Shown here piece after piece: positions 15,754 to 23,538 of a stretch of 64,000 nt of DNA (its first letter is position 1; every line of letters begins with the position of its first letter). Both the position numbers and the translations under genes were made by a program. Location: the NCBI RefSeq assembly GCF_965641715.1, contig NZ_OZ282453.1. One strand, 5' to 3'. This DNA comes from Escherichia coli (GTDB lineage: Bacteria > Pseudomonadota > Gammaproteobacteria > Enterobacterales > Enterobacteriaceae). The notes under the pieces are model-generated. The model was given only the letters and a program-made list of their open reading frames with translations. It was not told where the DNA came from and ran no database searches.

Positions 15754-16494
15754 CATGTATCAGGAAGAGTTAAGGGTACAAGGGGTACTCGATGGCGGTC
15801 TATATTTCATGACTAACGCCATTTAAAGGAAGAAGTGCGGTGGGTGGTTTCGAATGAGGGCTGGTGTTTTGGTACGTGGCACGCCACTGCAATGTATTTA
15901 TCCATCAGTACTCATTCAAAAGTACCTGGAAAAAATGCCCGCTATGCCAAGCGGGCAAATTGCTTACATGTGGAATTAAGTAATTAACGATAAAGCCAGA
16001 GTATTATCATTTATTATACCCATTCATTTAATCAGGTTAATTACTCAAATCACTGAACTATTCTCTGTTCGCTCACTGATGATGAGTGAGTACCACAACC
16101 AATGTATGTAGAACAATGCCGTAGAGTAAGGATGAAATGTCTCTGCCACGCCTTAAACATCTACTACTGACTAGAACACCCGCCGCAGGTAGATGAGTTT
16201 TGTGAGCGTTACAGGAGTCTGGCTTTGCTCATTAATCAACGCTATTTAGATATAAATTTCTAACACTCGAAAAACGATTTTCACTAATTAATTATAACGG
16301 GTGGTTTTTATCATACAGCGAAATAACCTTTTGTTTATTAAATTTAACATTCCTGTGCTAATTTAATTAAAAGTTCCATGCGTAGCAAGTGAAGCAGTTA
16401 ATGTCAGTAATTGTCTCAAATGAGCGATTTTTTATAGTGACAAACAGTAATAACATTAAAAATAGCCATGTAGACATTAATTGAGGAATAGACA

Positions 16495-17868
16495 ATGTTA
16501 GTTAGTAAAAGCAACGAACTTAACACTAGCGCATTTTTTGCTAGCAGGAATTATAATGGAAACAATTCTTCCAACCCCATGGAGCTACTAGCTCATAGCA
16601 TTATAAAATTAATTTGTAAGGAAGCTGCCTCAGCGACGTATTGCGGTGCTCTTGAAACTTTACAAAAAATGATGTCTGAATGTATATATCAAGAAGGCAA
16701 CGCATTTGTCATTATGGGAGCTGGAGAACAATTAAAACGTATTAAATATGATGTTGATGAAAATAACTTAAAGGTATTCAACGTACACTTTGATAATAAT
16801 GAAGTGTTAGTTACTGATGGTGAGCCTGACGTAGTATGTTTAAGCAAGCAGGTCTGGGAAAATCTTCTCATTAAACTAAAGCTGGAGAACAAAGAAAATA
16901 CGGCTTCTGAAGTTCATGAATCAGCGAATAAAGGTGAGGTTGAGCAATTAGTTGAATGCTCTAAGAGAAATGAACAGACCCTTTTCGATAATATAAGAAA
17001 AAGTGATTTTCATGTTGGTTCACTTAAGCCAGGTAGTATGAATAGTGTTATTTTAGAAATGCCACCAAATGTCTGTATGGAACCACGTAATTCATATGAA
17101 AACAAAATAGATGAGGTTTCATCTTTGTCAGAGCCAAAGGAACACACCATAGATATTCAAGAAAAAACAGATGCGTTTGTGAAGAAGTTCAAGGGGATAT
17201 TATTTGATCAAAATGGAAGGTCTTCAGAGTTTCTACTTAATTTTTATGAATGTTGCTATGTGTTTTTACCAAGAGCGCAGCCTCAGGATAAAATCGAAAG
17301 CTATAATTCAGCACTGCAAGCTTTTTCCATCTTTTGTTCATCTACGTTGACACATAATAATATAGGCTTTGATTTCAAATTATTTCCAGAAGTCAAGCTG
17401 TCTGGAGAACATCTTGAAACGGTATTCAAATACAAAAATGGCGATGATGTCCGGGAGATAGCCAAAATTAACATTACTCTCCAAAAAGAAGAGGGTGGCT
17501 TATATAATCTACGTGGATTGGATTTTAAGGGATGTTTCTTTTCTGGACAGAACTTCAGTAACTATGATATTCAATATGTGAACTGGGGAACGTCATTGTT
17601 TGATGTTGATACTCCGTGTGTTTTTAATACGCCTGCTAACCATGAGAGTTATGAAAAATCATTAAAACCTGTAAGCGAAAACGGTTTAAATGGAGTCTTA
17701 TCTGATCGTAATAAAAAAATAAAAATGATCACGGGTGTGGCGCCATTCGATGATATTTTATTTATGGATGATGACTTTGATGATAACTCCCCTGAGGATG
17801 ATCCCGTTGAGAATAGTCCTGTTGTGAATAGTCCCCTTGTATCAAGTTCTAAAAGCAGTTTTCAATGA
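16495..17868 (+). CDS. ypjC: YpjC-like hypothetical protein (457 aa) with short pentapeptide-repeat stretch and acidic Ser/Pro-rich C-terminus
   Basis: Long ORF with GAGG RBS; AT-rich; segment RGLDF-KGCFF-SGQNF-SNYDI fits the pentapeptide-repeat pattern; C-terminal DNSPEDDPVENSPVVNSPLVSS. Confidence 0.7.
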   Translation: MLVSKSNELNTSAFFASRNYNGNNSSNPMELLAHSIIKLICKEAASATYCGALETLQKMMSECIYQEGNAFVIMGAGEQLKRIKYDVDENNLKVFNVHFDNNEVLVTDGEPDVVCLSKQVWENLLIKLKLENKENTASEVHESANKGEVEQLVECSKRNEQTLFDNIRKSDFHVGSLKPGSMNSVILEMPPNVCMEPRNSYENKIDEVSSLSEPKEHTIDIQEKTDAFVKKFKGILFDQNGRSSEFLLNFYECCYVFLPRAQPQDKIESYNSALQAFSIFCSSTLTHNNIGFDFKLFPEVKLSGEHLETVFKYKNGDDVREIAKINITLQKEEGGLYNLRGLDFKGCFFSGQNFSNYDIQYVNWGTSLFDVDTPCVFNTPANHESYEKSLKPVSENGLNGVLSDRNKKIKMITGVAPFDDILFMDDDFDDNSPEDDPVENSPVVNSPLVSSSKSSFQ

Positions 17869-18201
17869 TTAATAAATGGCGATTTTTACAAAGAGATAAT
17901 AACGTAGATTGAAACAATATGTATTATTGATTGATTAAACGGGATTATTTTTTACACTACAACCATTTTGCTGCCACTACCAAAGAAAAAGGGGCTACGC
18001 TTTCATGTAACCCCTTGATTTATTTGGTGGGCTGGCAGTGACTGAATTGGTGCTGTAATTGGTTGAAATATTTCATCTAATGTCTGGTTCAACTTTCCTT
18101 AGCTGCCTGAAAGTTTTTTGATCTCACCCAGCAATAACAGCGTTACGGTGCACCACGCCTGACTGAAGAACTGCGTGCTCAGGGTTACCACTTCAACGTA
18201 A

Positions 18202-18441
18202 AACCGTGGCAGGAGGTCCGGACTGAAAAAACTGCTCAGGACATCATCGGCAGGGAACGCACTGCTAGTCTGTAAACTGAACCGACTGGGGCGCAGTATG
18301 TGGCATCTTGTCGTGCTGTTGGAGGAGCTGTGCGAACGTGGTATTAACTTTCGTGCTCTGGCCCAATCTATATTTGCCCAACAATGGGGGGACGAATGCT
18401 GTAAAAGTAAAACAATCTGCGATCTCAAAGTTATTGTGTGA
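18202..18441 (+). pseudogene. pinH: Remnant of a Pin/Hin/Gin-type serine DNA invertase (pinH-like); internal fragment only
   Basis: Frame translation [58 protein letters not shown]... closely matches the central region of serine invertases as recalled (…[51 protein letters not shown]…); no N-terminal catalytic Ser region and no C-terminal HTH. Confidence 0.6.
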
Positions 18442-23378: not shown

Positions 23379-23388
23379 CCATCAACGA

Positions 23389-23412
23389 AAAAGCCCACAT
23401 CTGTGGGCTTTC
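23389..23412. terminator. Hairpin after ypjA (possible terminator)
   Basis: Inverted repeat AAAGCCCACA-TCTG-TGGGCTTT directly after the ypjA stop. Confidence 0.5.
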
Positions 23413-23538
23413 ATGTCACCAGGAGCCGCGGCTCCTTTGCGTATCCTTTTATGTCTCCTCACCGTCTGGTCGGTGTCCTGCTGAGACTTCTAACTTCCTG
23501 TTTTTGTTGGTGTTGTTTTTACACCGTCCAATCATGAT

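Follow-up and report, generated by a model that had tools for sequence, protein, structure and literature searches.

Three probable sequence layers in a prophage-free glaH-ssrA variable region of Escherichia coli

The 64,000-nucleotide stretch of the E. coli chromosome analysed here (contig NZ_OZ282453.1, hereafter the window) carries the variable region between glaH and ssrA in a prophage-free state, and the comparisons presented below make it probable that this region is built up of three layers. The oldest would be an ancestral layer comprising glaH, ygaQ, ileY and approximately 310 nt past ileY, which E. coli has in common with E. albertii. The second would be a stretch of about 7.3 kb (approximately 16056-23387) that was inserted long ago in E. 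coli only and bears ypjCB, a stump of mobile DNA and ypjA, and the third would be the ssrA 3' end, an unoccupied attB for elements with P4-type integrases. The region is ordinary, already annotated E. coli chromosome and has been known to be variable.

Organisation of the region

In window coordinates, the region from glaH to smpB contains the following features:

glaH (csiD), 11542..12519, minus strand: conserved left flank, as annotated in the collinear locus of strain A30
ygaQ, 12856..15108, minus strand: intact, coding for a 750-aa alpha-amylase-family protein
ileY, 15668..15743, plus strand: tRNA-Ile2, anticodon CAU (ARAGORN, Rfam)
Segment 3' of ileY, 15744..16055, no strand: common to E. 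albertii (blastn and three-way alignment)
ypjCB, 16495..17868, plus strand: intact, 457 aa (Pfam, NCBIfam)
IS3 transposase gene fragment, 18136..18210, plus strand (nucleotide match and weak Pfam HTH_21)
pinH-type remnant, 18214..18372, plus strand: piece from within a phage DNA invertase gene (Pfam Resolvase, nucleotide identity)
ypjA (ehaD), 18780..23378, plus strand: intact, 1532-aa AIDA-I-type autotransporter adhesin, as predicted by Pfam and NCBIfam
ypjA-ssrA spacer, 23379..23538, no strand (sequence; blastn boundary at 23388)
ssrA, 23539..23901, minus strand: tmRNA (ARAGORN; Rfam, 295.8 bits)
smpB, 24116..24598, minus strand: conserved right flank (ORF list and annotation of collinear loci)

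The order ileY-ypjC-pin remnant-ypjA-ssrA, which a first-pass annotation had read from the sequence, agrees with the coordinates obtained by ARAGORN, Rfam and the ORFs. The same annotation had described ypjC and ypjA as intact, ypjA as ending about 160 bp from the ssrA 3' end, and integrase and prophage genes as missing. Indeed, ypjCB is a single ORF of 457 aa and ypjA runs through 1532 aa without stops to a stop codon at 23376-23378, 160 nt from ssrA, and no integrase or phage genes were found between ileY and ssrA among either the window ORFs or the annotated features of the near-identical A30 locus. The characterisation of the block as AT-rich holds for ypjCB (35% G + C) but not for ypjA, whose G + C content of 50% is not atypical; that of ygaQ is 38%.

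Comparison with K-12 and strain A30

In the whole-genome alignment that had been suggested as a check, the K-12 MG1655 locus (NC_000913.3, 2.755-2.789 Mb; ssrA-CP4-57-psaA-ypjA-pinH-ypjB-ypjC-ileY-ygaQ-glaH) is collinear with the window outside CP4-57, with the same order, orientation and junctions. Nucleotide identity is 96.4% over 12005-23553 and approximately 99.6% in the flank from ssrA to bamE (23538-25994), with ssrA alone reaching 100%. The window lacks the 22-kb CP4-57 and the psaA attR fragment, both of which are found in K-12. Moreover, ypjCB is uninterrupted in the window whereas its K-12 counterpart has one in-frame stop after codon 160, ygaQ is intact whereas in K-12 it is a pseudogene with three internal stops, and YpjA is 6 residues longer than in K-12 (1532 as compared to 1526 aa). 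As it carries intact copies of both K-12 pseudogenes, the strain is therefore a suitable background for studying ygaQ, ypjCB and YpjA.

The same arrangement, with intact ygaQ and ypjCB, a partial recombinase gene and ypjA adjoining ssrA, is present in strain A30 (NZ_CP028745.1), which is 98.6% identical to the window across 16 kb. A30 and the other genomes that share the direct ypjA-ssrA junction (see below) display allelic differences only.

The ssrA attachment site

The ssrA gene is full length (363 nt) and identical to K-12 ssrA at 363 of 363 positions, T357 being retained. Its 3' end is the attB for CP4-57-type or P4-type integrase elements and is empty here: comparison with attL and attR of K-12 places the unoccupied site at 23539 to approximately 23561, and only ypjA and the 160-nt spacer lie beside it, with no integrase gene. 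A single copy of the ssrA 3' end was found in the window (23539-23566; 18-nt and 28-nt probes, at most 3 mismatches). In blastn comparisons K-12 aligns from gabD to window position 23553 and the alignment resumes from 23538 onward, so that the two segments abut at 23538-23553, and the K-12 sequence separating them is CP4-57. The K-12 attL runs from ...CTCCCGCCAGCTCCACCA into AAATTC and attR from ...CTCCGCCAGCCCACCA into ATCATGATTGGACGG, and the sequence past attR (ATCATGATTGGACGG...) is exactly the window sequence directly after ssrA; in K-12 the same ypjA-side spacer is found on the far side of CP4-57. Judged from these junctions, K-12 corresponds to the window sequence plus the 22-kb CP4-57, integrated precisely at the 3' end of ssrA. 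In the K-12 annotation, CP4-57 ends at psaA, a 14-nt ssrA fragment, before ypjA, and ypjA, pinH, ypjB/C, ileY and ygaQ are already placed outside the prophage. Within the spacer, a hairpin (23390-23411) with T5 after it on the minus strand was read from the sequence; it is probably the ssrA-side terminator and was not called in a consensus terminator scan.

Distribution among complete genomes

Among the 5426 complete E. coli genomes that served as reference set, the direct ypjA-ssrA junction is present in 1388, i.e., in about a quarter, at up to 100% identity, the K-12-type ssrA-intA junction in 632, and a B2-type junction of glaH, 333 bp and ssrA in 1100. About 42% of the genomes fall outside all three of these ssrA junction types, and elements at ssrA were observed directly in N41 (prophage genes) and TW10590 (an integrase). 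The junction of glaH and ygaQ is found in 4060 genomes (75%), ileY and ypjCB are contiguous in 3011, and at least 80% of an ileY-to-ssrA query (window 15500-24100) is found at one place in 2605; over this full query, the identity reached in the collection is at most 98.5%. With 1388 empty junctions against 632 K-12-like ones, the absence of CP4-57, which had at first seemed noteworthy, is commonplace, and it is the occupancy by CP4-57 in K-12 that represents a minority state.

Relatives lacking the block

The B2-type genomes, e.g., ZH193 and NRG 857C, have the same glaH and ssrA-smpB flanks as the window and keep an ssrA-proximal spacer of approximately 150 nt including the hairpin, but lack the entire 10.7-kb block 12719-23387, ygaQ and ileY included. 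The homology edges in blastn comparisons with ZH193 lie at 12718/12719 and 23387/23388, and the right edge at 23388 was found against both ZH193 and N41. No homologue of the 333-bp filler exists in either the window or the E. albertii locus, and the B2 state, probably a derived one, is a replacement of the whole ygaQ-to-ypjA block by 333 bp of unrelated sequence. Divergence rising towards this indel would point to a balanced polymorphism of ancient date. Close to the indel, identity is low: 88.6% over the 218 nt that precede glaH, 93% in the outermost 500-nt windows of this flank, and 89-90% both in the spacer and between ssrA and smpB. Elsewhere it is patchy (93-99%).

In E. albertii CP117650, glaH, a ygaQ homologue, ileY and approximately 310 nt beyond ileY are found in the same order, with ssrA and smpB further on, but ypjCB, the pin remnant and ypjA are missing. 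Their place is taken by other genes spanning 2 kb, which resemble ykgR, ykgM and ykgO, and, beside ssrA, by a fragment with the appearance of a P4-type integrase N-terminus. The first-pass annotation had considered a universal ancestral arrangement as a possibility; the arrangement in the window is not universal, as the block is absent from B2-type genomes and its ypjCB-ypjA part from E. albertii.

ygaQ and ileY

Since E. albertii keeps ygaQ and ileY together with the 310 nt downstream, these genes appear to be ancestral, the polarity of gain and loss being based on this one outgroup genome. The blastn match between E. albertii and window 15594-16065 has 75% identity, and in the alignment homology fades after about 16055; the left edge of the block at about 16056 is therefore approximate, marking the point where this alignment fades. 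A G + C-rich hairpin (15936-15957) lies within the shared segment 3' of ileY. The E. albertii YgaQ homologue, whose gene adjoins glaH, has 60% amino-acid identity to that of the window, and with dS being saturated it is unusually divergent for an orthologue. The ygaQ product of the window matches the Pfam families Alpha-amylase and Alpha-amylase_C, each just over the cutoff, and the gene has a dN/dS of 0.13-0.17.

In pattern searches ileY was found as a single copy whose 3' end is not duplicated, and the ileY site is therefore unoccupied as well. The window has G and K-12 has A at position 67 of ileY, so that the acceptor pair 6-67 is U-G in the window and U-A in K-12; in E. albertii it is C-G. 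Loss of ileY mediated by IS elements has been described for strains W and B in the E. coli W genome paper (PMC3032704). The AUA codon is enriched in ygaQ and ypjCB (20-24 per 1000 codons) as compared to smpB and recN (4-6). This was considered, and rejected, as proof that the tRNA gene came along with the cargo, because ileY seems to be ancestral.

The orphan gene ypjCB

YpjCB of the window is matched over its full length and without internal stop by the NCBIfam family NF050179 (Ecoli_YpjCB; 939 bits, cutoff 650), with Pfam DUF5507 at residues 1-160 and DUF5508 at 195-457. All of the 120 best homologues come from E. coli, at 87-100% identity. A search of 1.84 billion representative proteins gave 44 matches, all but one of them close relatives or their fragments (55-99% identity); none represents a full-length homologue from beyond E. 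coli. When 100,044 species, each represented by a single genome, were scanned with exact 8-residue patterns, an approach that could miss divergent relatives, just two short contigs came up, labelled as a Planococcaceae MAG and Arthrobacter agilis; being 92-95% identical to the window, they were read as E. coli contamination and rejected as homologues. Within these searches YpjCB is hence an orphan protein of E. coli only, with very divergent alleles, and its gene has a dN/dS of 0.68 relative to the K-12 pseudogene. An AlphaFold2 model based on a 12-sequence alignment has a mean pLDDT of 42. A PA14 fold was considered too weakly indicated, the single remote match being to the PA14-repeat protein P0173 (E = 5e-4) across some 60 residues over a repeat junction.

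Mobile-element debris and ypjA

The pin remnant noted in the first-pass annotation is real: 18214-18354 matches DNA invertase genes from phages, P2-like ones among them, at 80-84% nucleotide identity, and it is annotated as a partial recombinase in A30 as well as K-12. It covers only positions 52-103 of the 145 in the Pfam Resolvase profile, with stops on both sides, and 18214-18372 does not encode a complete Pin/Hin/Gin serine recombinase consisting of a catalytic domain with the active-site serine and a C-terminal HTH. It is thus a non-functional pseudogene fragment. The neighbouring IS3 fragment (75 nt) has 92% nucleotide identity with IS3 from locus L009 and yields a weak match to Pfam HTH_21; in strain TW10590, an IS3-mediated deletion of the same segment was observed directly. 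Both fragments precede the start codon of ypjA, by roughly 400-650 nt.

From its ATG at 18780, YpjA aligns end to end over residues 1-1532 with K-12 YpjA (96.4% identity). One uninterrupted ORF codes for a signal peptide, 11 AIDA repeats, a pertactin domain and an autotransporter beta-barrel, with matches to Pfam AIDA (11 times), Pertactin and Autotransporter and to TIGR01414 (336 bits). By this architecture YpjA/EhaD is predicted to be an AIDA-I-type (type Va) autotransporter, and a function in adhesion or biofilm formation is given in the literature (PMC9289746). The dN/dS ratio indicates that ypjA is under purifying selection.

Origin of the ypjCB-ypjA block

The proposal that the block is an older independent island or the residue of a different element fairly describes the segment from about 16056 to 23387, given its absence from B2-type genomes and, for ypjCB-ypjA, from E. 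albertii, and the mobile debris inside it. Its placement between ileY and ssrA as limits has to be abandoned, as the approximately 310 nt after ileY are common to E. albertii and the approximately 150 nt after ssrA to B2, so that the block does not begin at the 3' end of a tRNA or tmRNA gene. Likewise, the bounding direct repeats of the ssrA or ileY 3' ends, a search for which had been suggested as a check, were not found: in the window, neither probes of 18-28 nt with up to 3 mismatches nor a general repeat finder detected repeats derived from either gene above chance. The sole hit, the 10-nt GCCACCAAAT within ygaQ, was discarded as a chance match. Six-frame translations of 15744-16494 and 23379-23538 contained no tyrosine integrase or remnant thereof. 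Variable presence and atypical composition, which are expected of a classical island, are observed (E. albertii and 1100 of the 5426 genomes lack the block; 35% G + C in ypjCB), and relative to B2 the variable unit also takes in ygaQ and ileY. Because it lacks repeats derived from ssrA or ileY and adjoins neither attachment site, the block does not appear to be a classical tRNA-integrated island.

Going beyond the anatomy and distribution observed in the genomes, we infer for the mechanics of the insertion that the second layer would have entered by a route other than the attachment sites in ileY and ssrA, and that its mobility genes would since have been lost, probably by IS-mediated deletion, leaving as a stump the 75-nt IS3 fragment and an invertase fragment of roughly 140-160 nt. 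ypjCB with 35% and ypjA with 50% G + C may have arrived separately and not as one insertion. In functional terms, the whole ygaQ-to-ypjA block would provide another gene for tRNA-Ile(AUA), in addition to a first one, as well as an amylase-like protein, a protein of unknown role and an adhesin on the cell surface.

A further-reaching version of this history, which we consider unlikely, takes the invertase and IS3 fragments as all that is left of a prophage-like element by which ypjA, and perhaps also ypjCB, reached an early E. coli lineage, and the block-bearing and B2 block-less haplotypes as an old dimorphism kept by recombination at a hotspot. If this were true, ypjCB would have originated in E. 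coli, or be confined to it, and would be diversifying rapidly; its product has a weak motif like a PA14 repeat junction.

It is quite unlikely that ygaQ, ileY, ypjCB and ypjA as a whole belong to the ancestral Escherichia core, with independent deletions in B2 and E. albertii and no island at all. The glaH-ygaQ junction in 75% of the complete genomes, the synteny of ygaQ and ileY in E. albertii, purifying selection on ygaQ and ypjA and the genome-typical G + C content of ypjA are in line with such a core. However, the 1.84 billion representative proteins include no full-length YpjCB homologue from beyond E. coli, the 100,044-species scan yielding contaminants only, E. albertii has different genes replacing ypjCB-ypjA and not a simple gap, and the IS3 and invertase fragments lie in mid-block.

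Very unlikely, too, is a decayed classical island that was integrated at the ssrA or ileY 3' end by a tyrosine integrase and whose integrase and att sites have since eroded. It would account for the variable presence of the block among strains, its position between the two documented integration targets ssrA and ileX/ileY (PMC8767318, PMC3032704), the AT-richness of ypjCB and the mobile-element debris. Yet neither a second ssrA or ileY 3' end (at most 3 mismatches) nor flanking direct repeats are present, the spacer shared with B2 parts the block from ssrA, with CP4-57 inserting on the ssrA side of it, the segment common to E. albertii parts it from ileY, and the recombinase fragment stems from a small phage DNA invertase and not from an integrase.

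Finally, it is highly improbable that the ssrA site is empty because an ancestor of the strain recently lost CP4-57 or a similar element by excision: although CP4-57 excises at low frequency (PMC10107115) and the 42% of genomes with other ssrA junctions together with the elements in N41 and TW10590 imply frequent gain and loss, excision in K-12 deletes T357 of ssrA (PMC10107115), which is intact here, and the junction is common to 1388 genomes without a scar; excision with a perfect att core may, however, leave the same sequence.

Comparison with integrative islands

ileX and ileY share one attB, and both this site and ssrA are documented integration targets (PMC8767318, PMC3032704). With the integrative islands known from there, i.e., CP4-57 and P4-type elements at ssrA and SpLE1-like elements at ileX/ileY, the block has in common its neighbourhood, its variable presence and an adhesin-type cargo. 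Unlike them, it has neither an integrase nor an att duplication, and neither RNA gene has its 3' end next to the block. With a putatively ancestral ygaQ-ileY portion, an old insertion that lacks att sites, and a modern attB side by side, the locus provides a clear and small example of a layered hotspot.

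Gene content between ileY and ssrA

The interval between the tRNA gene ileY and the tmRNA gene ssrA contains two long open reading frames separated by a gene-poor stretch.

Features from ygaQ to ssrA
12856-15108, minus strand, ygaQ, intact, 750 aa, alpha-amylase family, left of ileY
15668-15743, plus strand, ileY, tRNA-Ile2, anticodon CAU (ARAGORN, Rfam)
16495-17868, plus strand, ypjCB, 457-aa ORF with DUF5507 and DUF5508 (NCBIfam YpjCB model, 939 bits)
17869-18779, gene-poor stretch with two fragments inside
18136-18210, IS3 transposase gene fragment, 92% identity to part of the gene
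18214-18354, DNA invertase fragment, 80-84% identity to invertase genes of P2-like and other phages
18780 (ATG) to 23376-23378 (stop), plus strand, ypjA, 1532-aa ORF
23539-23901, minus strand, ssrA, tmRNA (ARAGORN, Rfam)

The next gene leftward beyond ygaQ is glaH. In agreement with the first-pass annotation, ypjC (as part of ypjCB) and ypjA are intact, being uninterrupted over 457 and 1532 aa, respectively, the ypjA stop lies exactly 160 nt from the 3' end of ssrA (about 160 bp had been estimated), and neither an integrase nor a phage gene was found between ileY and ssrA. The pin remnant corresponds to the invertase fragment, which spans only positions 52-103 of the 145 positions of the resolvase domain. 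YpjA comprises a signal peptide, 11 AIDA repeats, a pertactin domain and an autotransporter barrel, and aligns over its full length with K-12 YpjA at 96.4% identity. Pair 6-67 of the ileY acceptor stem is U-G in the window and in strain A30, U-A in K-12 and C-G in E. albertii, and thus looks like the intermediate of a compensatory change.

The unoccupied ssrA attachment site

The window is E. coli DNA: over a 10-kb core stretch, identity reaches 99.4% with the best matches and 99.3% with O157 strains, which come next. Collinearity of the window with K-12 MG1655 runs in two segments, one from gabD up to 23553 and the other starting at 23538, and the K-12 DNA separating them is the cryptic prophage CP4-57. 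At the K-12 attL, ...CTCCCGCCAGCTCCACCA is followed by AAATTC..., and at attR, annotated there as the 14-nt pseudogene psaA, ...CTCCGCCAGCCCACCA is followed by ATCATGATTGGACGG...; beyond attR, K-12 reads exactly as the window does next to ssrA. The position of CP4-57 at ssrA given in the first-pass annotation is therefore correct, and the window equals K-12 minus CP4-57. Excision of CP4-57 in K-12 removes T357 of ssrA and inactivates the tmRNA (PMC10107115). Since the ssrA gene of the window is identical to the intact gene at 363/363 nt, the site is a native attB rather than the scar of a K-12-style excision.

Junctions among 5426 complete E. coli genomes
Direct ypjA-spacer-ssrA junction (state of the window): 1388 (26%)
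K-12-type ssrA-intA junction: 632 (12%)
glaH-ygaQ junction: 4060 (75%)
ileY contiguous with ypjCB: 3011 (55%)
At least 80% of the ileY-to-ssrA query (window 15500-24100) at one place: 2605 (48%)
B2-type junction (glaH, 333 unrelated bp, ssrA spacer): 1100 (20%)

With 1388 direct as opposed to 632 ssrA-intA junctions, the CP4-57-free site is the commoner one, and the absence of the prophage, which had been pointed out, is the normal condition. Published comparisons already describe an ssrA occupancy that differs from strain to strain, an attB common to ileX and ileY, and the loss of ileY in strains W and B via IS-mediated deletions (PMC3032704, PMC8767318).

Boundaries and ancestry of the variable block

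In the B2-type strain ZH193, homology to the window stops at 12718 and restarts at 23388, which defines a variable unit of 10.7 kb including ygaQ and ileY. In strain N41, prophage-like genes adjoin the identical 23388 breakpoint. For the 333-bp filler of the B2 junction (ZH193 locus L003, 11668-12000), no homologue was detected in the window or the E. albertii locus. The breakpoint at 23388 coincides with the outer foot of a hairpin (23390-23411), after which the ssrA strand reads T5; judged from its sequence, this hairpin would be the ssrA-side terminator, although a consensus scan made no call there.

The outgroup E. albertii (CP117650, locus L008) shows the same order as the window, i.e., glaH, a YgaQ homologue (60% aa identity), the ileY orthologue and about 310 nt 3' of ileY, until homology runs out at about 16055. 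Therefore, the ygaQ-ileY arrangement is ancestral and the B2 state derived, while the segment at about 16056-23387, containing ypjCB, the debris and ypjA, is specific to E. coli. At 60% identity and saturated dS (about 2.1), the divergence of ygaQ from its syntenic homologue (L008 10001-12217) is far greater than would be expected of an orthologue whose location is conserved. An inverted repeat (GAATTAAGTAATTAAC / GTTAATTACTCAAATC, 15973-16051, arms separated by 47 nt) coincides exactly with the end of E. albertii homology and is also kept in E. albertii; it might mark the site of the old insertion.

Between the end of homology and ssrA, E. albertii carries about 2 kb of other genes. A short ORF directly downstream of ssrA (L008 7151-7252) resembles, by eye, a P4-type integrase N-terminus, and is followed by ykgR-, ykgM- and ykgO-like genes (L31 and L36 paralogues); L008 6988-9046 thus resembles the decayed remains of an element integrated at ssrA, with zinc-independent ribosomal protein paralogues as cargo.

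An E. coli-specific origin of the inner segment is supported by the confinement of YpjCB, an orphan protein, to this species. The best 120 homologues all come from E. coli, and 1.84 billion representative proteins yielded 43 close relatives or their fragments (55-99% identity) and one further, weak match to a metagenomic PA14-repeat protein (P0173), in which the junction between PA14 repeats is weakly resembled by YpjCB residues ~297-356. When one genome per species was scanned, only two contigs matched, from a Planococcaceae MAG (UBA3370, L005) and Arthrobacter agilis DSM 20550 (L006); both are 92-95% identical to the ileY-ypjCB region of the window and almost certainly represent E. coli contamination of those assemblies.

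Origin of the inner segment

The segment is not a classical integrative island. The direct repeats of the ssrA or ileY 3' ends that had been suggested as island borders do not exist, as 3'-end probes found no second copy of either, and no flanking repeats above chance were found. It is kept apart from ileY by the ~310 nt common to E. albertii, and from ssrA by a spacer of ~150 nt common to B2 genomes, on the ssrA side of which lies the CP4-57 insertion point; in the K-12 annotation, CP4-57 already stops short of ypjA. Of the proposal of an older independent island or element residue, an old E. coli-specific insertion with mobile-element debris stands, but ileY and ssrA are not its boundaries. 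In the alignment with the B2-type strain ZH193, the missing unit has its edges at 12718 and 23388.

The sole recombinase trace, next to the IS3 fragment, is a segment from the interior of a small phage DNA invertase. A mobile or prophage-like element probably resided at the site formerly and was mostly lost through IS-mediated deletion. Such a deletion is directly visible in strain TW10590, where IS3 lies 94 nt past ileY and ypjCB-ypjA is missing. With a G + C content of 35% and 50%, respectively, ypjCB and ypjA may have arrived separately.

Other elements in the window

A P2-like prophage at 41952-64000 continues to the window end, so that, some 18 kb away from the empty ssrA site, the strain does have a prophage.

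Features of the P2-like prophage
41952-42974, minus strand, integrase, adjoining the pheL leader (41660-41785)
46118-46315, C4 antisense and isrK RNAs
47047-49869, gpA-like nickase
53075-54121, portal
54121-55872, large terminase
56887-57939, major head protein

The gabT-gabP gap (7175-7432) contains a tandem array of three matches to naRNA4, a nucleoid-associated RNA of REP origin.

Coding capacity in comparison with K-12

All features of the region are already annotated in reference genomes. As dN/dS is 0.13-0.17 for ygaQ and 0.17-0.28 for ypjA, both are under purifying selection and, by this measure of their sequences, look like working genes; YpjA has been placed among the biofilm-associated autotransporter adhesins (PMC9289746). 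AlphaFold2 gave no usable model of YpjCB (mean pLDDT 42). YpjCB alleles are very divergent (87-100% aa identity), and ypjCB has a dN/dS of 0.68 and 91.7% nucleotide identity to K-12, as opposed to 97-98% in adjacent segments. This divergence may reflect relaxed selection because the K-12 copy is a pseudogene: in K-12, ypjCB has one and ygaQ three internal stops, whereas both genes are uninterrupted in the window.
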